Assembly: GCA_963766885.1 (NCBI GenBank)
Contig: CAVYBO010000002.1
Location: 365,521 to 429,520 of the forward strand
Length of the DNA: 64,000 nucleotides
Reading direction: 5' to 3'
Source of the DNA: an uncultured bacterium
Lineage (GTDB): Bacteria > Patescibacteriota > Minisyncoccia > Phycocordibacterales > CAIRYW01
Shown here: positions 7,582 to 60,678 of the stretch, piece after piece
How positions within the stretch are numbered: position 1 is the stretch's first letter
Layout of the letters: every line of letters begins with the position of its first letter
Translations under genes and position numbers: made by a program
Notes under the pieces: model-generated
The model's database searches: none
What the model was told of the DNA's origin: nothing
The model's input: the letters and a program-made list of their open reading frames with translations, nothing else

Positions 7582-7621
7582 GAAATAATTGTATCATTTA
7601 GATACCTCAAGAATAAATAAT

Positions 7622-7695
7622 GCGCGCCCTCGTGGACGCTGTTGGAACCAGAATAAGAGAACACAACGGGTATATTTTCATTGCAGACCTGAAAG
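7622..7695. repeat. 74-nt intergenic repeat, copy A (diverged at a few positions)
   Basis: It reads gcgcgccctcgtggacgctgttggaaccagaataagagaac...cattgcaga and is shared with 8779-8852 and 9935-10008. Confidence 0.9.
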
Positions 7696-7711
7696 AAAAA
7701 ATAATTCTAAA

Positions 7712-8080
7712 CTAAAAAATGTCGGTCACTCGAGACATTGCGGTTTGGTCCATCTCCGCATCATTATAATTATCAATGTGGGTCCCGATGCACAGCAACA
7801 CAATAACGGTTCCTTTTACAGCAAACCACATTCTGGGAAACTGGTTTGGACGTAATCCAGAATTAGGTACCACAAGCTCAATCTTCCACATTGTCCAAAT
7901 AGCATTCTGTGTTATACGATGTAATTTTGCAGGAGCAATAACTTGTTTAGGGTTTGTGGGATTAAATTGCACTTCGCACAATCGTTGAAATATAGATATA
8001 CCATCATCAATTTGTGAAAACCGCCGCTTAAATGCGGCGATTTCTTTTTGAATACCGTCGTGATAGATAAACTCGATCAT
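7712..8080 (-). CDS. hypothetical protein, possible toxin partner of the upstream Panacea-domain protein
   Basis: It is a 122-aa ORF overlapping the upstream gene by 4 nt. There is no motif match, so the toxin role is inferred from context only. Confidence 0.4.
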   Translation of the reverse strand: MIEFIYHDGIQKEIAAFKRRFSQIDDGISIFQRLCEVQFNPTNPKQVIAPAKLHRITQNAIWTMWKIELVVPNSGLRPNQFPRMWFAVKGTVIVLLCIGTHIDNYNDAEMDQTAMSRVTDIF

Positions 8081-8577
8081 AAATCACTAAAATCAGTACC
8101 ACGATAGAAAGCAAGTTCATACGGGATTTCTTCTCTTAACTCTGTTCCAATGTAAGGAGCTTCGGCGTGAGATAATTCCTCTAACTGTTTACCGTTGAGA
8201 TGACCATACCTCAAAACAATTCTGTCGAGCATTTTTTTTTCTTCTTCATCAAGAGATGATGGTCCCGCGTCTTCAACACAACGATAAACTTCCGTAGGAT
8301 TATATCCTTGGCTACCATCAACCCTTTCAACAGTAATGGTTTTTTTCTTTGCCATATCAGCAGTTACTTCATCAAGCGCAATTGGGAACGGCCCCATTGG
8401 AAGCGCGCGATATACATCTCCAGTTATTGATTTCTGGTTTTTTTCATAAAAATCAAAATCAGCAAAATATAACAATTTCGCTAATTTTTTCTTGCCTCGC
8501 ACTTCACCACCTAATTTTTTACACAAATAAGCAATGGTACTCTGATACTTTTTTTGATTTGAAGTAGATATCACCAT
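8077..8577 (-). CDS. Panacea (DUF4065) domain protein, antitoxin-like
   Basis: KLAKLLYFADFDFYEKNQKSITGDVYRALPMGPFP matches the Panacea/SocA-type core (KLxKLLYFAD...GP). Confidence 0.55.
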   Translation of the reverse strand: MVISTSNQKKYQSTIAYLCKKLGGEVRGKKKLAKLLYFADFDFYEKNQKSITGDVYRALPMGPFPIALDEVTADMAKKKTITVERVDGSQGYNPTEVYRCVEDAGPSSLDEEEKKMLDRIVLRYGHLNGKQLEELSHAEAPYIGTELREEIPYELAFYRGTDFSDL

Positions 8578-8778
8578 ATATATAATTATTATAACAGATT
8601 GGGGAGCACATCAATAAAGACGCTATCCCCACCCTTATTATTACGATAAAACAAGGATATTTGATGCTAAAAACGAAAAACACCCATATAGGATGTCTTT
8701 CACGTTTAGTATACATATTTTATAGAGAAAACTGGCTATATGTCAATTTGAAAGGTACCCCTTTCGGGGCTTTTTCTT

Positions 8779-8852
8779 GCGCGCCCTCGTGGACGCTGTT
8801 GGAACCAGAATAAGAGAACATAACGGTTATATTTTCATTGCAGATTTGAAGG
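8779..8852. repeat. 74-nt intergenic repeat, copy B
   Basis: It is identical to copy C over about 74 nt and is preceded by a cccctttcgggg hairpin. Confidence 0.9.
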
Positions 8853-8967
8853 AAAAGATAAATGAAAATATAAATACCAGATTTTAAAGACGAAAGGCAC
8901 CCATTTAGGATGCCTCTCACGTTTAGTACAGAATATTATATATGAAACTTTTGATAACTAAAGTGGA

Positions 8968-9882
8968 TTAAGAACTAACACCACCTCCAGTGATTGTGAA
9001 ATTAACCGAATTGCTGGTTGTGCCGTTGCTTGTTACAGAAACCTGATAGACACCAGAAGCAGAATTACCAACAAAAATATTTGAGAGAGTGAAGATAAGT
9101 TGGTTGCTATCAACTATTGGTTGACCAACGAGCCATCCTACTACTTTGCCATTTTGACTAAAGTTCACGGTACTGTTTGTGCTAAAGCCACTACCATAAA
9201 TTGTTACCTTTGTACCAGAAGTCCCAGAAGTTGTTGACAGGGAGGATATAGATGGTTGAGTTGAAACTGAATTACCTACAACTTTTAATGAATAAGAAGC
9301 ACTCGTACCTAAACTGTTTGTAATATAGAGATTATAATTTCCAGCAAGTAGGGCTGGGCTATCTGGTACAGCAAGATTTAAAGATGTTCCATTTGCACTT
9401 GCCCACTCTAGATAAGATGTATTTCCCGAGCTAGAAACAAGATACACGTTAACTATATTGCTTAAGTTTTGTCCATACACATTATCAGTAGATGTTGCAC
9501 CGAATGTATTTGATAGGGATGTAATAACTGGTATAGAAGAGGACGTAGTTTGTGTTGAGCCAGAACCCAATACCCCATCTGCATTACAATGAGGAGGATT
9601 GGTTGCACCGTTATAACAAGCCGCTGGAGTTGAACCCTGCTGTGCAAGTAAAGTTTGCAACTCTGCTTCAAGCTGTTGGAGAAGTTGTGTAATGAGCTGA
9701 ATAATTTGCTGTTTTGTAGAAGCCGCAGTAGAAGCACTTACACTTTGTGCAAACACAGGAGAGAAAACTGCTAAAGACAGAAGTCCGACACCCAAGAAAG
9801 AAATATATTTTTTCATATTTGATAATAATTTAGTAATGTAGTAATTATACACTACTGCCCTACAAAACATATCTCGGTTCAA
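8968..9882 (-). CDS. secreted Ser/Thr-rich surface protein
   Basis: It has a signal peptide (MKKYISFLGVGLLSLAVFSPVFA), a Q/L-rich helical segment and an S/T/N-rich low-complexity region. Its 5' ~190 nt are nearly identical to those of 13306-14865. Confidence 0.6.
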   Translation of the reverse strand: MNRDMFCRAVVYNYYITKLLSNMKKYISFLGVGLLSLAVFSPVFAQSVSASTAASTKQQIIQLITQLLQQLEAELQTLLAQQGSTPAACYNGATNPPHCNADGVLGSGSTQTTSSSIPVITSLSNTFGATSTDNVYGQNLSNIVNVYLVSSSGNTSYLEWASANGTSLNLAVPDSPALLAGNYNLYITNSLGTSASYSLKVVGNSVSTQPSISSLSTTSGTSGTKVTIYGSGFSTNSTVNFSQNGKVVGWLVGQPIVDSNQLIFTLSNIFVGNSASGVYQVSVTSNGTTSNSVNFTITGGGVSS

Positions 9883-9934
9883 GTCCCTAAATGGTGTGAA
9901 CTTTTTATCCTTATTTTACTTAACAAAAACCGAT

Positions 9935-10008
9935 GCGCGCCCTCGTGGACGCTGTTGGAACCAGAATAAGAGAACATAACGGTTATATTTTCATTGCAGA
10001 TTTGAAGA
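9935..10008. repeat. 74-nt intergenic repeat, copy C
   Basis: It is identical to copy B and is preceded by caaaaaccgatgcgcg, a junction also found at 14931-14950. Confidence 0.9.
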
Positions 10009-10037
10009 ATAAGTGTGAAGCGATTACAATGTAGTAT

Positions 10038-10664
10038 ATGAAAACTTTTGCTTTTATTGATGCATCAAACTTATTTTATGGAGGAGAGAAAAGTCTCGGC
10101 TGGAAAATTGATTACAAGAAACTTTTGGAATACTTGAAAGAAAAATATAGTGCAGAGAAAGTTTTTTACTTCGGTGGCGTTGAGATACACGACTTTCCAT
10201 ACGACTACCAGACAGAAGATACGGTGCCGATAGAAAAGCTGGACAAGCATCTTGCAGATTTGCTGAAAAACAAAGGAGAAGAACTTGATGAAGCAACTAT
10301 CTTGCTCATTGGCAGACATCTGAAGAGGGTGCAGTTTTACAGAAAGCTCCAAGAGTTCGGTTATACCCTATTTCTTAAACCAGTAAAGCTATACGACCAA
10401 GATGATGGAACCACAAAAAGAAAAGCTAACTGCGATGTTGATATGGCTTTCCACTTGATGAAAGAAAAACATAATTTTACCAGAGCCGTTGTTCTATCGG
10501 GAGATGGAGACTTTCTGCCAGTGCTGAAACACCTCAAGGAAGTTGGCAAAGATGTCTTGATATTAGGCAGAGGTCCAAGAACAGCAAAAGAAATAAAACA
10601 ATTTGCAGGAGATAAGTTTTTAGACTTCACTCGTCTTCAGCACAAGCTATTTTTTAATAAATAA
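10038..10664 (+). CDS. NYN-domain (LabA-like) protein, putative RNase
   Basis: It has an AFIDASNL N-terminus and a conserved acidic core (VVLSGDGDF), typical of NYN/PIN-like domains. Confidence 0.65.
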   Translation: MKTFAFIDASNLFYGGEKSLGWKIDYKKLLEYLKEKYSAEKVFYFGGVEIHDFPYDYQTEDTVPIEKLDKHLADLLKNKGEELDEATILLIGRHLKRVQFYRKLQEFGYTLFLKPVKLYDQDDGTTKRKANCDVDMAFHLMKEKHNFTRAVVLSGDGDFLPVLKHLKEVGKDVLILGRGPRTAKEIKQFAGDKFLDFTRLQHKLFFNK

Positions 10665-10743
10665 AACAGACGGCACCTGCGAAAGATGCCAGTCCACGTT
10701 TAGTGCATTTAGTATATACGATATTTGGCGTATGTAAAGTGCA

Positions 10744-11432
10744 TTAAAACTCCTGGACCATAGGTATATCGCTTACAAAATTCTCAACCTTTTTGGTTAC
10801 CGTTTTTGTATTACCATGCTTTAAAAGCCCAATGTAATATTGCACCGTCTCGGGCTTCCCTGCTTTGTTTTTGATATTTCTAAACATTCTTTTTTTGGTG
10901 ACTGTTCTAATAATCCTGTTGTCCGGAAAATGCACCCACCCCAGAAAATCAATACCACTTCTGGATGAACATCTAACGACTCGTCAATTTTAATGCCGAT
11001 TTGTTTTGCCATTTCTTTAGTAAATTTTTTACCAATCTCGCTATGAAAATAGCCGAGCGTACGACAAATATCAATTCTTTCTGTTTCCGAAAGAGATTCC
11101 CATACGTCCATCATCATATCGCCCTCAATATATTCATACCCATACATTTTTGGTTTTTCGGAAACAAAAATTACACGAGGTATAGGAACAGAAAGACCTA
11201 TTTTATACAGTTGTTGAATAACGACAGCTTCTATCGCCAAATCATTTTGTTCTTGCAACTCTTTGTCGTTTCCTTGTTCTTTGACAATATACTTACTCTT
11301 GTCAGAAGTTTCTATATAATAAGCATTGTTACAATAGCCTTTGCCTTTTAATACAAACTTTGTAATTGCTTTACGTAAAAGTTCTTGAATTTTAACTTTG
11401 AGTTCATCTTCAGTGGCTGAATTATTTTCCAT
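10744..11432 (-). pseudogene. aminoglycoside/choline-kinase-like phosphotransferase, frameshifted
   Basis: It has a kinase N-lobe (KGKGYCNNAYYIETSDKSKYIVKE) and a Brenner-like DVHPEVVLI motif. The reading frame breaks near 10935-10960 and continues as IDFLGWVHFPDN in another frame (ORFs 10821-11432 and 10744-10935). Confidence 0.4.
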
Positions 11433-11444
11433 ACTAAAAATAGT

Positions 11445-11570
11445 ATCAGGTTAGAACTGAAAAGTCTAAGGGAAATAAGGATTTATTGAAGAAATCTACT
11501 GATGGGCGACGTAGTAGAGGATGTTAGAACTGTTTTTGAGAGGTTGAATGATATGAGTATTTATATTCCT
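11445..11570. repeat. ~125-nt repeat, copy 1, abutting the start codon of the phosphotransferase pseudogene
   Basis: It shares two identical blocks with 13113-13245: tatcaggttagaactga (17 nt) and tgatgggcgacgtagtagaggatgttagaactgtttttgagagg (44 nt). Confidence 0.85.
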
Positions 11571-12112
11571 AACTTGTCAGCCATCAAAATATCGTAACCA
11601 ACCATAACCCTGTCTTCCTTTTTGATTCCAAATTTTTCTAGAAACGAGAAGAGTTCATTGAAGACAACTTCATCATCTTCATCAGACATTTTTTCCACTT
11701 CTATGAAATCTCCCAATCCTTCTACTTCATCAATACAGATTTCATAATTATTAAAATTTGCTTTTCTTCTTTTCTTGTTTAGCTCCATAGCTTTTTTATA
11801 ACCCATAAGTTCAATCATTTCAGAGGTAATTTTTGCATCACTAACCACAACTTCTTTTTCCAATTTTGATAGATTATTTTTCATTGAACCTTGTGGCTTT
11901 TTTACGGTAAAAAGAACTTTATCTTTCGTAACTCTAATCCTTGCAAACACAGCTCCATCTGGATAATCGGCATATTTTTCAGAATAGTTTATGAAGACAG
12001 AATCATTTTGTATGACTTCAATACCAAAAGGAATCCCCTCTTTTTCAAAGGTTTTAATGAGATTTTCCTTATCTTGAATTTTTGCTTTTACCTCTATTTC
12101 TTTTATTGGCAT
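11561..12112 (-). CDS. CYTH-domain protein (class IV adenylate cyclase / triphosphate tunnel metalloenzyme family)
   Basis: It has the N-terminal EIEVKAKI signature (ExExK), downstream R/K residues, and the expected ~180-aa size. Confidence 0.65.
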   Translation of the reverse strand: MPIKEIEVKAKIQDKENLIKTFEKEGIPFGIEVIQNDSVFINYSEKYADYPDGAVFARIRVTKDKVLFTVKKPQGSMKNNLSKLEKEVVVSDAKITSEMIELMGYKKAMELNKKRRKANFNNYEICIDEVEGLGDFIEVEKMSDEDDEVVFNELFSFLEKFGIKKEDRVMVGYDILMADKLGI

Positions 12113-12121
12113 AATAAATTT

Positions 12122-12667
12122 TTATTTTTTAATATCAACTAAAATAAATTTAACAACTTCTTCTGAAGAAAATTCTGTGGTATCAAATACTTTTCCTAGG
12201 TCATACCTGTTTTCTTTCCAAGTTTTCAGGTTATTTTCAATTCTTTCTTTTGTTAGGGGTATTTTTCCTGGAGTGTCTGGCCTGACGTGTGCCCTTTCCC
12301 TTAATACTTCTATTGGGGCTTCTAACTGATAGAAATGTAAATCTGTTCTAAATTCATTAGCTAGGTTTATATATGGCTCAACATATTCTTTTTTCCAGAA
12401 TCCCTGTTCTATTAGTACATTGCAACCCTGTTCAAGAAATGTTTTTGCCATTGAAAGCATTACTTTACTTATAAGACCATTATCTTCATTATTTCTCTCA
12501 AAATCAGAAAGAAACCATTTGATTTTATCCATACTGAGTAAAGCTGTTCTCGGAAGTTTTGGATGAAGTATAGAAGCGATTGTAGTTTTACCAGCACCCA
12601 TTGGTCCTTCTAGAATTATTACAAATTGCTTTTTCATATTAGCGGTTTTATATTTTCTCTTATCCAA
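12122..12667 (-). CDS. P-loop kinase (AAA_33 / zeta-toxin / chloramphenicol-phosphotransferase-like)
   Basis: It has a Walker A motif (GPMGAGKTT), is about 180 aa, and has a small lid region. Confidence 0.6.
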   Translation of the reverse strand: MDKRKYKTANMKKQFVIILEGPMGAGKTTIASILHPKLPRTALLSMDKIKWFLSDFERNNEDNGLISKVMLSMAKTFLEQGCNVLIEQGFWKKEYVEPYINLANEFRTDLHFYQLEAPIEVLRERAHVRPDTPGKIPLTKERIENNLKTWKENRYDLGKVFDTTEFSSEEVVKFILVDIKK

Positions 12668-13104
12668 GCACCTTTCTTTTCCTTGTATTCTTCGCGACTC
12701 AAGCCAGAAAGACCTCTTTTAAATTCTTCGTATCTTTTTCTTAATTCTTCATTTCCACGAAGCACTTCAATAATTCCCCTATGCTTATCTATATTATTAT
12801 TTTCTGGAGACATTATTTGAACGGCTACCTCAACATTTTCTACCATTATTTTTAAGAAAGAAGTTTCATCCACTACAGGACCTTGTCTGTATCCGTGTTG
12901 CACAAGAATTTGAGAATCTTCTTCAATATGTTCACTTATGACCATTATGTCTAGTTCAGGTCTACCAGTCATAGGTACAGCCATAGCTCCAACAGCTTCA
13001 ACGTGTGAATCTGGAAGTAGAGCTTTTATTTCTTCTAATTTTTCTTGCTGTATGCGAAAAATTTCTTCAGATGGTTCTACTATCGTTTCAATTCTATTTT
13101 TCAT
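12634..13104 (-). CDS. GrpB (UPF0157) family nucleotidyltransferase-fold protein
   Basis: VEAVGAMAVPMTGRPELDIMV matches the GrpB core (HIGSTAVPGLAAKPIIDI). Confidence 0.6.
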   Translation of the reverse strand: MKNRIETIVEPSEEIFRIQQEKLEEIKALLPDSHVEAVGAMAVPMTGRPELDIMVISEHIEEDSQILVQHGYRQGPVVDETSFLKIMVENVEVAVQIMSPENNNIDKHRGIIEVLRGNEELRKRYEEFKRGLSGLSREEYKEKKGAWIRENIKPLI

Positions 13105-13112
13105 ACCAAAAG

Positions 13113-13245
13113 TATATCAGGTTAGAACTGATTTTACAGCCTAAATAAAGGGTATTATTTATGAAATTCTTTGATGGGCGACGTAGTAGAGGATGTTAGA
13201 ACTGTTTTTGAGAGGAGGAATGATGCGACAATCTATATTCCGACA
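13113..13245. repeat. ~125-nt repeat, copy 2, abutting the start codon of the GrpB gene
   Basis: See copy 1. The two copies are direct repeats flanking the CYTH / kinase / GrpB trio. Confidence 0.85.
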
Positions 13246-13305
13246 TTTTACCCTATACCTGAACTCACTAAATATTAGATATTAGAACCAATTTAAATAA
13301 TTAGA

Positions 13306-14865
13306 CTAACAGGAATACTTACATTGAGTAGGTGTTAAAACTGAAAGATAAAGCAAATTATTAATTGATACCCCATCATTACTTACTCCAACGCTTACAT
13401 TTCCGTAGCCATAGGAAGCCCCTAGATTAGAAACAGTAAAAGTTAAAGTGGTGCCATTACTAGACACTGATGTCGGTGTAATTTTTTGTCCAGTAAGACC
13501 ATTGATATATATCGCTGTTGAACCATTAAACCCAGAGCCGGTTATTGTAATGTTTGTTGACCCATTGAATGGAACCGTCGTTGTTGATAATGAATATATT
13601 GGAGGATTTGTTGAACTTTGATTTTGTCCTGGGTTGCTAATAGTAAAGTAATTATCACTGTAATCAAAAGGTCCTTCAGCCATCATACTTTGTGGAGGAT
13701 AACCCTCTATTAAAAATTTAAACTGATTTTGATTATCAACGTTTTTTAATGTATATGGACCTCCTGAATAGTTTTGAATATAAGCACTTAGCGATACATT
13801 TGGAATATTCCAGGTGTAGCTTCCAGTATTGTTTGTAGTCACACTTTGGTCAGGTATTACTGCTTGATCCTCATTACCAGCAACTAAGGTAATTCTGACT
13901 TGTGAATAAGCGGAGTTAAAAGCTGGAGATGCATTCCAAGTTATATTGTAAGTATTTCCTTTAATTAAGTTCTCGCCTCCATTAGGTGAAGTAATTGTAA
14001 TAGATGGGGTTTGATTTTGTGTTGAACCAGAAACTGTAAAAGGATACTGATTACTCTTTAATCCATAAATATTTTCAACCTCAACATTGTATTGTCCTGG
14101 GAGTGTGCTGTTTGGAACTGAAAATGAAAACTGGGTATCGCTTGTGGGTTCCCCAGAAGGATTATTTGTTGAAACGTCTGTAATAACAGCACCAGTAGAA
14201 GCATTTAACAAATGTATTTCAATTCCACCATTAACAGAAAATCCTGTTCCATAAACCGTTATAGAACTTCCCATACCAAACTTTGTGCTGTCAACATAGG
14301 CAGTATTTGGAGAGATTGAAGTTATCGTAGGTGCTACTGATGTAGGTGTTCCAGAAATTATTGAGAAAATGCCGCTTTGAGCGCCTACCTCTCCACCTGG
14401 ACTCAATGCTCCGCAATTTCCAACAGCAACAGAATAAGAACCACTTGGTATACTTGAATCAACTATCCAAGAATAATTACCACTGTTAGAAATAGCGTTT
14501 GCTATTGTTTTAACTGAAGTATTATTTGAAAGTAGATTGATTGAGATATTTGGACAAAGTAAATTAGAAGATGTCCATGTAATGTTGTATGTCTGGCCTG
14601 CTGTTAATTGACTTCCTGCAGTTGGACTAATAACAGTAATGGAAGGTTGGGTTGAAGTTGTTGTGGTTGTCGTCTGAGTTGAACCTTGCTGTCCCAACAA
14701 AGTCTGCAACTCCGCTTCAAGTTGTTGGAGAAGTTGAGTTATAAGCTGAATAATTTCTTGTTTAGTAGAAGCTGCAGTAGAAGCACTTACACTTTGAGCA
14801 AATACTGGAGAGATGACAACAAGAGAAAGCAAACCGACACCGAGAAGAGAAATATATTTTTTCAT
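13306..14865 (-). CDS. secreted Ser/Thr-rich surface protein, paralog of 8968-9882
   Basis: It has the same signal peptide and QQLEAELQTLL module. It has a long S/T/N-rich C-terminal region ending in CKYSC. Confidence 0.6.
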   Translation of the reverse strand: MKKYISLLGVGLLSLVVISPVFAQSVSASTAASTKQEIIQLITQLLQQLEAELQTLLGQQGSTQTTTTTTSTQPSITVISPTAGSQLTAGQTYNITWTSSNLLCPNISINLLSNNTSVKTIANAISNSGNYSWIVDSSIPSGSYSVAVGNCGALSPGGEVGAQSGIFSIISGTPTSVAPTITSISPNTAYVDSTKFGMGSSITVYGTGFSVNGGIEIHLLNASTGAVITDVSTNNPSGEPTSDTQFSFSVPNSTLPGQYNVEVENIYGLKSNQYPFTVSGSTQNQTPSITITSPNGGENLIKGNTYNITWNASPAFNSAYSQVRITLVAGNEDQAVIPDQSVTTNNTGSYTWNIPNVSLSAYIQNYSGGPYTLKNVDNQNQFKFLIEGYPPQSMMAEGPFDYSDNYFTISNPGQNQSSTNPPIYSLSTTTVPFNGSTNITITGSGFNGSTAIYINGLTGQKITPTSVSSNGTTLTFTVSNLGASYGYGNVSVGVSNDGVSINNLLYLSVLTPTQCKYSC

Positions 14866-14945
14866 TTATTTAATTTAATACCCGACTGATAATAGGTGTA
14901 TTATACCCCCCCGTTGTTATAAACAATAACAACAAAAACCGATGC

Positions 14946-14961
14946 GCGAGTGGCGGGAATC
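14946..14961. repeat. 16-nt duplicate of the tRNA-Asp 3' end (att-like scar)
   Basis: tgcgcgagtggcggga is identical to 15117-15132. Confidence 0.8.
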
Positions 14962-15118
14962 TTTCCCTCGACTAAAATTTTCTCGTCAGAAAATTTTGTC
15001 TGGGCACCGACTCGCGGTTTTGGCTACTGCCCAAACATCGCTCCGCCGTTCAAGTACCTAAAAAAGCTCCGCTTTTTTCACTCGTGCAAACCAAAAGCCC
15101 CTTTCGGGGCTTTGTCTG

Positions 15119-15192
15119 CGCGAGTGGCGGGACTTGAACCCGTAACCTCTGCCGTGACAGGGCAGCGCTCTAACCAGTTGAGCTACACCCGC
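15119..15192 (-). tRNA. tRNA-Asp (GTC)
   Basis: It folds as a cloverleaf with a 7-bp acceptor stem, anticodon loop CTGTCAC and T-loop TTCAAGT. Confidence 0.9.
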
Positions 15193-42155: not shown

Positions 42156-42245
42156 GGAGAGATGGATGAGTGGTTTAAATCAGCAGTTTACTAAACTGCC
42201 GAGCCTTAACAGGCTCCGAGGGTTCGAATCCCTCTCTCTCCGCCA
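42156..42245 (+). tRNA. class II Ser-like tRNA with an unusual anticodon loop (TTACTAA, nominal anticodon ACT); CCA is encoded
   Basis: It has acceptor GGAGAGA/TCTCTCC, D-loop GAGTGGTTTAA, anticodon stem GCAGT/ACTGC, a long variable arm, T-loop TTCGAAT and discriminator G followed by CCA. Confidence 0.65.
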
Positions 42246-53619: not shown

Positions 53620-53692
53620 TGCGTGTGGAGGGGCTCGAACCCCCGACCGGACGAGTATAAGTCGTCTGCTCTACCAACTGAGCTACACACGC
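53620..53692 (-). tRNA. tRNA-Ile (TAT)
   Basis: It has a perfect acceptor GCGTGTG/CACACGC, anticodon loop CTTATAC and T-loop TTCGAGC. Confidence 0.8.
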
Positions 53693-56207: not shown

Positions 56208-56245
56208 CCCCCGAAAATTTTGAAAGCTTTCAAAATTTTCGGGGG
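56208..56245 (+). terminator. perfect 19-bp-arm palindrome between smpB and ssrA
   Basis: cccccgaaaattttgaaagctttcaaaattttcggggg. Its 3' arm overlaps the tmRNA 5' end. Confidence 0.6.
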
Positions 56246-56636
56246 ATGCTTGGCATAGACATTTGAAATTTCTTTGCTGTGCGCAATAGAGAATTCTCGA
56301 AATCTCTTAAACTCTCGAGAAAACTCAAGTGCTAAAGCACAGAAAGTCGCTTCTCCATATTTTGGAGCAAACGATTTCGCATTCGCTTTTGCTAGAGCGT
56401 AAGCTCGCAAACCGGATGCCATCCTTCCAGTTCCCTTCTCTCGAATTGGACAGGGTGTTATAAGATGAGAATAAGCTTGCGGATTTCTTCGCCCGCAAGA
56501 CAAAAATCTTAGAAGATCGAAAATAATGCGTTTCGTTTTGCTTTGAGCATTATTTTTTAAATTTCAAGCAAAAACACATTGCGTAGAGTCATCAAAGAAA
56601 CTCATTTGCACGCGGGTTCGATTCCCGCCATCTCCA
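56242..56636 (+). ncRNA. ssrA: tmRNA (ssrA)
   Basis: The 5' GGGGATG pairs with the 3' CATCTCC. The 3' end is tRNA-like (T-arm GCGGGTTCGATTCCCGC). A candidate tag ORF reads GCA AAC GAT TTC GCA TTC GCT TTT GCT AGA GCG TAA (ANDFAFAFARA*). It lies directly downstream of smpB. Confidence 0.7.
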
Positions 56637-57334
56637 CACTACAGGAATATTTCTCCTCAAATTTAGTTTATACATTGGTAACAAATAGTTTCGAGAGGTT
56701 CTAACCGTCACTTTTAAGCCATAATCGAAAACTATACAGTTTATAGACCAATTCTAATTGGAGCTTATTCTGTCTGCTTTAAAGAGGTTCTAACCAAAAC
56801 AAAGTCATAATCAAATATATTGTGTATAACGGCACTTGACTAACTTATACAAAAAGTATAAGCTTAGTAGGTACTTTGAAAAATCAAGGCAACTGGATAG
56901 TCATTAAAGACGGTTATTTCAGGCAGAATAAAAACTGCCTCAACTTTCCTCTATAGGTACTAGTAGGAAAAGAAAATTCACCGGCACATCTGTGCATTAA
57001 TGTCTCTATTTACAAGGCTCATATATTTTTGGTCATAAGCTCAATTGATTCATGGCGTGTCAATGTCGTGTCATCTTTGCGAGTCAGGAATTTTTTTTGG
57101 TCAGAATTGGATGGGATAATTATAGAGATAGTTATATGGTAGGGGTTACTCAACGATCGAATGGTCAGTGAGTTTCACAACAAAACGCTACCACCGAAAC
57201 AAATGACCATTCAATCTGCGAGTCACCAATTAATAGAAAGAATTAATTCCCAAATAAACAAAATATGAAAAATTATTGGTATTCGTCACACAACAGTATT
57301 GCTTTGAGCGTTTTGTATGTAAGGGAGGCAAATT

Positions 57335-60428: not shown

Positions 60429-60678
60429 GTTAGTAGGATTAGTATACCAAAACCAATATTGTTTTATAGCTTTGCTCCTTTGTTTTTAGCGTATATACTT
60501 ATTTCACAACCAAATATTCCGAAGACCTAACCCTTGAAAACCTCAAGGCACGGTCACAAATCGACGTGAATAAAAAACCTATCATTAGGGCGTTCACGTC
60601 GTTATACAGGGAAACTTGTATAGGAGCTTCGGCTCCCCTAGTGGTAGGCTTTTTGTTTCTCCACTAGGACACACGATT

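Follow-up and report, generated by a model that had tools for sequence, protein, structure and literature searches.

Repeats between gene cassettes of a Patescibacteria genome as probable integration scars of a tRNA-Asp-targeting serine recombinase

Introduction

The window examined here is a stretch of 64,000 nucleotides (nt) of contig CAVYBO010000002.1 (assembly GCA_963766885.1, positions 365,521 to 429,520 of the forward strand) from an uncultured bacterium of the Patescibacteriota, and it contains, between 7.6 and 15.1 kb, a series of short direct repeats that separate small groups of genes. We consider it very probable that these repeats are attL-type junction scars of a Patescibacteria integrative element whose large serine recombinase (LSR) targets the 3′ end of tRNA-Asp(GTC). 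The peptide encoded by the repeat, which we call the tail, is homologous to recombinase C-termini, and in other loci islands are bracketed in the form tail...int|tRNA-Asp; tails and tRNA ends also have a core in common and differ by a 5-bp shift in a distal motif.

According to this explanation, the recombinase gene would run across its own attP, with a core, TGCGCG, ~25 codons before the stop codon, and 3′ of the core would lie the rest of the codons (..LVDAVGTRIREHNGYIFIxxL) and a P′ arm of ~28 nt that imitates the 3′ end of the tRNA. Integration would join the body of the recombinase gene to the reverse complement of the tRNA, and would leave the 25 tail codons stranded at the other end of the island, fused there to the sequence beyond the tRNA, which is usually a terminator hairpin. 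The 7.6–15.1-kb region of the window would then have arisen by repeated integrations that involved two or more recombinase lineages, whose integrase modules were later lost, and would amount to a case of gene capture. The repeats themselves are an ordinary outcome of site-specific integration, and their interest lies in the enzyme family that they indicate.

Three direct repeats in the window

A repeat search of the window identified one direct-repeat family with copies A (7621–7711), B (8778–8868) and C (9934–10024), spaced 1157 bp (A to B) and 1156 bp (B to C). The first-pass annotation had described three near-identical repeats at these spacings, accurately save that its coordinates ran one base late. 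All three copies agree throughout their first 43 nt, B and C are identical over 74 nt (8778–8851 and 9934–10007), and between A and B there are 4 mismatched positions over 74 nt, or 5 over 75 nt, with homology running on to ~91 nt. Two 31-nt sub-patterns, allowed up to 3 mismatches each, matched only A, B and C, with 0 matches expected from 100 dinucleotide-preserving shuffles. Independent unitigs from run ERR11630394 (L002, of 1174 bp, L011 and L012) stop ~30 nt inside the repeats, probably due to breaks in the assembly graph at the repeat borders; wherever they extend across a junction of A, B or C, it is the same as in the window, which supports the cassette order but falls short of proof. 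When the window proteins were looked up in other assemblies, the only matches were to these ERR11630394 unitigs.

The repeat had been called not palindromic, and we likewise found no inverted arms inside it. Rfam returned no match at the gathering score, nor any of relevance with the cutoff relaxed to E=10, and folding of both strands of copies A–C gave no significant structure (z-scores −2.6 to +0.7), the sole folding better than that of shuffled sequence being the terminator that flanks copy B.

Coding character of the repeat

The + strand of each of copies A–C encodes MRALVDAVGTRIREHNGYIFIADLK, and the micro-ORFs (open reading frames) read MRALVDAVGTRIREHNGYIFIADLKEKIILN in A, (L/M)RALVDAVGTRIREHNGYIFIADLKEKINENINTRF in B and MRALVDAVGTRIREHNGYIFIADLKNKCEAITM in C, each closed by a stop codon. 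Across the 25 codons shared by A and B there are 5 differences, all of them synonymous in the + frame. What had been taken for an intergenic repeat in three copies is therefore coding-like on the + strand, and two more divergent copies of it lie at 11502 and 13174. When one genome per GTDB species was scanned for exact 24-nt matches, a single one came up, in an unrelated metagenome-assembled genome (L001), where the sequence again reads ..RDLVDAVGTRIRE... A protein search combined with a metagenome scan added 55 further loci, and a hidden Markov model then brought the collection to 65 distinct copies; coding and consensus statistics were taken over 64 copies.

Frame 0 of the + strand is open in 59 of the 64 copies, as against 7–18 of 64 for the other frames. 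Counted over the three codon positions, substitutions numbered 4862, 2334 and 10303 in codons 10–19 and 5143, 3527 and 7259 in codons 20–25, while codons 1–9 showed no periodicity (7156, 5989 and 6486). The third-position excess was also present in secondary copies, which had been found without back-translated patterns. From the excess in codons 10–25 and its lack in codons 1–9, we concluded that the 3′ two-thirds of the repeat has evolved as codons, unlike the first 27 nt.

Gene callers mostly miss the tail motif, or annotate it as a hypothetical small protein. A Pfam search of the tail peptides produced only a sub-threshold DUF2415 hit, and a supposed resemblance to the HicA N-terminus was superseded and not used. 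Coding on the minus strand, or a C-terminal extension of the convergent genes, was rejected since the other five frames contain stops in most copies, and a type I toxin was rejected since the peptide is not hydrophobic. The absence of an Rfam match and of a significant fold, together with the codon periodicity of the conservation, led us to reject a structured non-coding RNA family as well.

The recombinase family behind the tails

A profile of the window peptides, run against 1.84 billion representative proteins, gave 120 matches, and in all 120 predicted proteins the tail motif lies at the C-terminal end or no more than ~40 residues from it. The longer matches have a common upstream region (..NWL.HTE.VFNFA...EEKK.I...LG.N..IKD.KL.I...WLEPI......ELEK.......CP.LR|DLVDEVGT.IREHNGYIYIPNL, then a stop codon). 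This region aligns with residues ~416–540 of full-length LSRs of 530–541 amino acids (aa) that carry PF00239 (Resolvase), PF07508 (Recombinase) and PF13408 (Zn_ribbon_recom). It also aligns with a 309-aa ORF of locus L034, which has PF13408 above threshold and matches residues 263–426 of the XisF model; one full-length homologue of the L034 ORF is named 'recombinase family protein [Patescibacteria group bacterium]'. By this homology, the proteins behind the tail are large serine recombinases.

In P0007, P0015, P0030, P0068, P0088/L075, P0091 and P0124, the recombinase C-terminal region runs on without a break into the tail, in peptide and in DNA, whereas the last residues of many LSRs, full-length or truncated, are the translation of a reverse-complemented tRNA (..VRGRRDLNSQPPA, ..RGRPDLNR or ..WLRGWDSNPRPIG). 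The attP lies inside the integrase ORF: ORFs in the integrated state end in tRNA-antisense codons, and those in the unintegrated state end in the tail. The recombinase gene of L071 is full-length (541 aa), those of L076, L077 and L034 are truncated, and L051 retains an N-terminal part. All-versus-all clustering of the ORFs of 60 loci showed ligA-gatC-gatA and tRNAs to recur and found no recombinase within 6 kb in most loci. A literature search of partial coverage returned no Patescibacteria serine recombinases of this sort, although an earlier description is possible.

Candidate attP and attB half-sites

The repeat had also been judged not tRNA-like, which is incorrect for its first 28 nt, as these resemble the reverse complement of the tRNA-Asp 3′ end. 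The consensus of 64 tails is TGCGCGaCcTaGTGGACGaaGTtGGAAC, and that of 12 tRNA-Asp 3′ ends (reverse complement) is TGCGCGacCGAcgGGACTTGAACC. The core TGCGCG is common to tails, recombinase 3′ ends and the tRNA-Asp 3′ end, and GGAC occupies positions 14–17 in both consensus sequences. T[TG]GAAC lies at 23–28 in 53 of 64 tails, compared with 18–23 in 12 of 12 tRNA-Asp ends, and is thus shifted 5 bp outward in the tails. In serine integrase sites, the distal zinc-ribbon-domain (ZD) motif lies 5 bp farther from the centre in attP than in attB half-sites (Rutherford et al., 2013; PMC3783163). The shift between tails and tRNA ends is as this attP/attB rule has it, with T[TG]GAAC as the putative ZD contact.

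In the recombinase 3′ ends of L003, L068 and L071, a mirrored GTCC precedes TGCG|CG at the same distance at which GGAC follows it, which places the dyad inside the core. When the sequences of the tail and tRNA-end comparison were read by eye, no mirror of the distal motif was found in the P arm. For the serine-integrase family that the related loci define, an explicit pair of candidate sites can be given at sequence level: attP would consist of the 3′ end of the recombinase gene, the core TGCGCG and ~30 nt from the start of the tail, and attB of the tRNA-Asp 3′ end with the DNA that follows it.

Integration geometry in related loci

In L068, a recombinase remnant (...GTTCTGCGCG|GCCGAGCGGACTTGAACC..) runs into the 3′ end of a tRNA-Asp(GTC) on the opposite strand, and in L003, L071, L076 and L077 the recombinase ORF likewise reaches or overlaps the 3′ end of an opposite-strand tRNA-Asp. 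The tail stands at the far end of the island from int, and in the same orientation, in L003 (tail 8016, int remnant 11147–11392, tRNA-Asp 11395), L076 (tail 6458, int 10001–11254, tRNA-Asp 11215) and L077 (tail 3559, int 10001–11170, tRNA-Asp 11131); in L051, three tails are followed by the 5′ end of a recombinase at the contig edge. In 12 loci, the window among them, the tail has a tRNA-Asp(GTC) 3′ of it on the other strand, and direct arrays of the tail element occur in at least 11 unrelated metagenomic loci. The first-pass annotation had stated that its reading would fall if the repeat were found only here, as a simple tandem duplication, and these arrays show that it is not.

By our reading, about half of the 65 copies sit within a few nt 3′ of a hairpin and T-run. 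One such hairpin, AAAGAACCATATTTCTATGG(C)TCTTTTT, precedes the tails in L021, L030, L039, L048 and L057 and is the tRNA-Asp terminator in L053. We read the hairpins before tails as the terminator that formerly followed the tRNA, and integration beside tRNA-Asp would account for their place in front of the tails. An earlier proposal, that a conserved promoter or leader module is being copied with its cargo, can be set aside because many copies stand directly after a terminator hairpin, which leaves no room for a promoter, and because the repeat shows codon periodicity. A group IIC intron or insertion sequence (IS) end, considered because the element starts NTGCGCG right after terminators, was dropped for the reason that the hairpin can be read as the tRNA's own terminator.

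The related loci have further features of their own. The island cargo of L076 (6796–8385) includes a reverse transcriptase gene (RVT_1) next to a bAvd gene, a pairing typical of a diversity-generating retroelement. In L071 (377–5244), an element with the full-length recombinase also encodes a ResIII helicase, an N6_N4 methyltransferase and a small HTH_17/MerR protein, the last a possible excisionase or directionality factor. The same 178-aa cassette lies between two tails 651 bp apart in L048 (5350–6075) and L057 (6001–6726), with the array oriented oppositely in the two contigs relative to the ligA-gatC-gatA operon. The tRNA-Asp genes of L022 (7862–7934) and L048 (8239–8311) have an atypical T-arm, GGGTGCTGACCCC rather than GGACTTGAACC, with the anticodon at position 33. 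Five tails carry a hairpin-forming insertion of ~20 nt, longer in L061 (L039 8383, L058 853, L061 824, L046 3241 and L064 5977). The insertion site is constant, between GTGGAC and GTKGGAAC, and the insertion, which is similar across three different loci, breaks the frame and keeps the 5′ nucleotides.

The island in the window

Five tails (7620, 8777, 9933, 11502 and 13174) lie between a histidine-kinase operon and tRNA-Asp (15118–15192) with no integrase, an arrangement which suggests a fossil, tandemly accreted island. Because no recombinase was detected in the 64-kb window, integration there is deduced from homology only; the window copies would have originated by integration and would now be inert, and the order of events, too, is a deduction. 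The left border of the array is formed by a histidine kinase gene and a response regulator gene (− strand).

Tail A (7620..7715, +), a probable attL-type scar, consists of the core TGCGCG, the P′ arm, the last 25 serine-recombinase codons and a 6-codon ending of its own. It is followed by the first cargo, on the − strand: a gene for a SocA_Panacea antitoxin-domain protein (166 aa, 8077–8577, E 7.6e-21) and, overlapping it, a gene for a 122-aa partner (7712–8080). This pair and the surface-protein-like gene after it had been recognized in the first-pass annotation, in agreement with our results. Directly 5′ of tail B is a hairpin with a T-run (8747..8776, +), whose stem-loop, CCCCTTTCGGGGCTTT, is the same as in the terminator adjoining the tRNA-Asp of the window and is read as a displaced B arm. 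Tail B (8777..8887, +; repeat block 8778–8868), again a probable attL-type scar, precedes a terminator-like hairpin at ~8890–8928 and the second cargo, a gene for a 282-aa protein (8968–9816, −). Its product begins MKKYISFLGVGLLSLAVFSPVFAQS, which is hydrophobic and, as we read it, signal-peptide-like, and we take it for a surface protein.

Tail C (9933..10034, +), the third probable attL-type scar, has a left flank, aacaaaaaccgA, that occurs again at 14922–14933. Its own cargo, an NYN-domain (LabA-like) nuclease gene (10038..10664, +), begins 3 nt past the tail C stop codon, an order of tail and NYN gene also seen in L058; promoter prediction gave only a weak −35 for the NYN gene inside copy C. 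A 203-aa ORF (−) separates the NYN gene from tail D.

Tails D (11502..11597, +; MGDVVEDVRTVFERLNDMSIYIPNLSAIKIS and a stop codon, starting MGDVVEDVRTVFERLNDMSIYIPNL..) and E (13174..13278, +; MGDVVEDVRTVFERRNDATIYIPTFYPIPELTKY and a stop codon) are divergent, with 85% identity to each other over 87 nt, and match a second subfamily of the protein hits (..WG|AVVEDVRTVFERRNDATIYIP.. and ..WG|AVVEDVRT..). Between them lie CYTH, AAA_33 kinase and GrpB genes (11561..13104, −), and tail E is followed by a gene for a 519-aa Ig-like/TIG surface protein (13306..14865, −), a paralogue of the 8968–9816 gene. A partial attB-like fragment (14933..14949, +; ATGCGCGAGTGGCGGGA), which repeats the reverse-complemented 3′ end of tRNA-Asp over its first 16 nt, has the same left flank as tail C. 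The island ends with the terminator hairpin directly 3′ of tRNA-Asp (15095..15117, no strand assigned), taken to be the B arm of an attB that is no longer occupied, and with tRNA-Asp(GTC) itself (15118..15192, −), whose 3′ end (TGCGCGAGTGGCGGGACTTGAACC on the + strand) would be the B′ arm of the integration target. The cassettes are not all co-oriented, and at least one has its own promoter- and terminator-like signals.

We also noted smaller features in and around the island. A second small repeat (8648–8711, 8865–8928 and 10670–10710) consists of a hairpin of the GGCAYCC..GGRTGCC type followed by CACGTTTAGT; it is terminator-like on the − strand, and one copy lies between the toxin-antitoxin operon and its predicted promoter. 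About 60 nt 5′ of tails D and E, at 11440–11460 and 13111–13135, stand partial extra copies of the tail 5′ part, AGTAT(AT)CAGGTTAGAACTG, which may be older truncated scars. A tRNA T-arm-like string, GGTTCAAGTCCC, lies 45 nt 5′ of tail C (9876–9890, +), with no ARAGORN call. The surface-protein paralogues are near-identical over N-terminal regions of ~60 aa (a signal-peptide-like start and a coiled QQLEAELQTLL segment), have a partly common upstream flank and diverge fully past the N-terminal region. Outside the island, the window contains a LOOT RNA (60524–60636, 72 bits against a gathering score of 46), a tmRNA with the tag AKAQKVASPYFGANDFAFAFARA (56242–56639) and, by ARAGORN, tRNA-Ser and tRNA-Ile with anticodons ACT and TAT (42156–42245 and 53620–53692), which are unusual in bacteria.

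Points against integration and alternative explanations

Several observations weigh against the interpretation of the repeats as integration scars. Further copies and linked recombinases, which the first-pass annotation had proposed to look for, exist in related loci, but tblastn with 10 LSRs (E≤0.01) found no recombinase gene or remnant in the 64-kb window. None of the contigs analysed joins a full-length recombinase to an intact tail; every attP-state example is either a fragment that lacks its N-terminus or a short contig, and an IMG/VR scan with the tail alignment returned nothing. Tails A and C have no preceding hairpin, and all dinucleotides within GCGCG are palindromic, which is unusual for an LSR crossover. 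Furthermore, tRNA-Asp is still beside its own terminator (B|B′ intact) in the window and in most loci, so that the arrays have the form B|P′-cargo-...-B|B′ and not attL...attR. Canonical LSRs do not act on attP paired with attL or attR, and PMC3783163 describes canonical serine integrases as inactive on site pairs other than attP × attB; given these limits, the route to an array of several tails is not explained by the model. Possible routes are accretion through relaxed site choice, trans-mobilization of units lacking int, and homologous exchange between strains or between surface-protein paralogues.

The array form is exactly the product expected of an active cassette system, in which a recombinase supplied from another part of the genome or by a visiting element would act in trans, excising [tail-cargo-hairpin] units as circles between neighbouring hairpin|TGCGCG sites and re-inserting them at the tRNA-Asp attB, in a manner likened to the accretion of cis-mobilizable elements (CIMEs) and integrative and conjugative elements (ICEs) or to composite islands of the staphylococcal cassette chromosome (SCC). 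The direct arrays in at least 11 loci, the occurrence of the 178-aa two-tail cassette in two contexts, L048 and L057, and the complete identity of B and C over 74 nt, which suggests recent events, all favour such a system. We nevertheless regard it as rather unlikely: neither a circular form, nor an empty site, nor a recombinase was seen for this genome, the limit of canonical serine integrases to attP × attB applies here too, and many tails lack a start codon or have insertions or truncations, like decaying scars. L048 and L057 may also be related genomes that differ by a rearrangement.

The spacings of 1157 and 1156 bp agree although the cassette contents are unrelated; the integrase model does not predict them, and we treat their equality either as an unexplained coincidence or as the trace of a duplication. 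Duplication or homologous recombination around a single ancestral scar, without serial integrations, would make them such a trace, left by a tandem duplication whose interior was later replaced, with unequal crossing-over between the 75-nt repeats or the surface-protein paralogues. The agreement of the two spacings within 1 bp, the identity of B and C, and the 5′ regions and flank aacaaaaaccgA|TGCGCG (9922–9939 and 14922–14939) that the paralogues share are as this would have it, but we hold it to be unlikely, as cassettes 1 and 2 have no in-register homology outside the repeat, and as tails D and E come from another recombinase subfamily, which implies at least two independent acquisitions. 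Nor is constant spacing a property of the system, as had been supposed, since the spacings of other arrays range without regularity from 455 to 2825 bp and the window itself has further spacings of 1569 and 1672 bp.

The micro-ORFs might also be genes in their own right, a family maintained in several copies and encoding proteins of 25–48 aa such as regulators or antisense partners of the convergent gene, with the recombinase likeness a result of exaptation. Consistent with this are the open + frame, the synonymous A/B substitutions, the start codon (ATG, TTG, GTG or CTG) present in ~63% of copies, the NYN gene 3 nt past tail C with the same order in L058, and the stop codon of the convergent gene 0–30 nt from the tail, owing to which a convergent transcript would be antisense to the tail. 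The periodicity is, however, fully explained if the scars are recent samples of a functional recombinase gene, and the first 9 codons evolve as a DNA site. A start codon is absent in ~37% of copies, many copies begin 0–8 nt past a terminator without a promoter, and some are 5′-only fragments or carry frame-breaking 20-nt insertions; together these argue against an independent gene, and we consider this explanation improbable.

The first-pass annotation was right to see a cassette or recombination-site array in so far as relics of such sites bound the cassettes, but its integron-like logic does not apply. Chromosomal integrons carry toxin-antitoxin pairs and secreted proteins among their cargo, as this window does, and have cassettes that resemble these ~1.1-kb units bounded by conserved repeats, yet an integron or integron-like attC array can be virtually dismissed: attC sites are imperfect inverted repeats with R″/R′ boxes that form a hairpin, and the repeat has neither such a palindrome nor a significant fold, there is in our reading no GTTRRRY/RYYYAAC pair, the linked enzyme in related loci is a serine and not a tyrosine recombinase (with no tyrosine recombinase among the recurrent neighbour families of 60 loci), cassette orientations are mixed with at least one cassette bearing its own promoter- and terminator-like signals, and no IntI, attI or Pc was found beside the array, where the flanks are histidine kinase, response regulator and tRNA genes (no dedicated IntI HMM search of the 64 kb was made).

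Meaning and comparison with known systems

If the repeats are junction scars, the 7.6–15.1-kb region can be read as horizontally acquired cargo (a toxin-antitoxin pair, surface proteins, an NYN nuclease and others) stacked beside tRNA-Asp, with the repeats as its seams, and the 25-aa tail motif offers a simple marker of island boundaries in genomes of the Candidate Phyla Radiation (CPR). In the accessible literature, tRNA targeting (PMC4383910) and an attP that spans the integrase's own gene (PMC8371274) are assigned to tyrosine integrases only; the family described here joins the two features. We tentatively suggest, at less than even confidence, an LSR family of Patescibacteria that, unlike characterised serine integrases, finds a tRNA target through a tRNA-mimicking P′ arm and has attP in its own ORF, with the tail as a built-in switch whose loss traps the element. 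Integration would then swap the last 25 residues for tRNA-antisense codons, the tailed episomal and tail-less integrated enzymes would differ in activity, stability or directionality, and trapped elements would drive stepwise gene capture, making the tRNA-Asp site a main gateway by which accessory genes enter these reduced genomes.

Among known systems, the large serine integrases (A118/LI, Bxb1, phiC31, SPbeta SprA and XisF) are alike in the Resolvase, Recombinase and Zn-ribbon domains and coiled-coil C-terminal region of the related-loci enzymes, one of which partially matches NCBIfam XisF, and in a short attP/attB core with the distal motif 5 bp farther out in the phage-type half-site (PMC3783163). 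No recombination directionality factor was identified in the related loci, the HTH_17 gene of L071 being only a candidate. Chromosomal integrons are similar in their arrays of small cassettes between conserved repeats, whereas the tail arrays have no attC hairpin, IntI or common promoter logic. SCCmec and other SCC islands (CcrAB large serine recombinases at orfX) form tandem arrays at one site with short direct repeats, and many members have no recombinase genes. The likeness lies in the tandem arrays, and the difference in repeat origin and target type: SCC repeats derive from the 3′ end of a protein-coding target gene and not from the recombinase gene.

Two further systems place the site inside the integrase gene. 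The attB sites of phage Mx8 also lie in tRNA-Asp genes, and its integration replaces ~112 int codons, versus ~25 in the tail system. Mx8 IntP/IntX resembles that system in having attP within the int coding sequence, so that integration gives int a new 3′ end (PMC6070905, cited in PMC4383910); it differs in being a tyrosine recombinase from a phage of a proteobacterium, as opposed to the serine enzyme of a CPR element. In the 'suicidal' SSV-type integrases of archaea (She et al., 2001; reviewed in PMC8371274), the site likewise lies inside the int gene, integration at a tRNA gene partitions the int gene, and the fragments mark trapped elements and captured genes; own-gene site, tRNA target and marker fragments are all matched by the tail system. 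Those enzymes belong to the tyrosine recombinases, are divided into two large parts, Int(N) and Int(C), and are called exclusive to archaea in the review. In place of the tyrosine catalytic fold of the SSV/Mx8 type (PF16795/phage integrase family), the enzymes of the related loci are serine recombinases, and the bacterial enzyme, which would lose only its last 25 residues on integration, may stay active.

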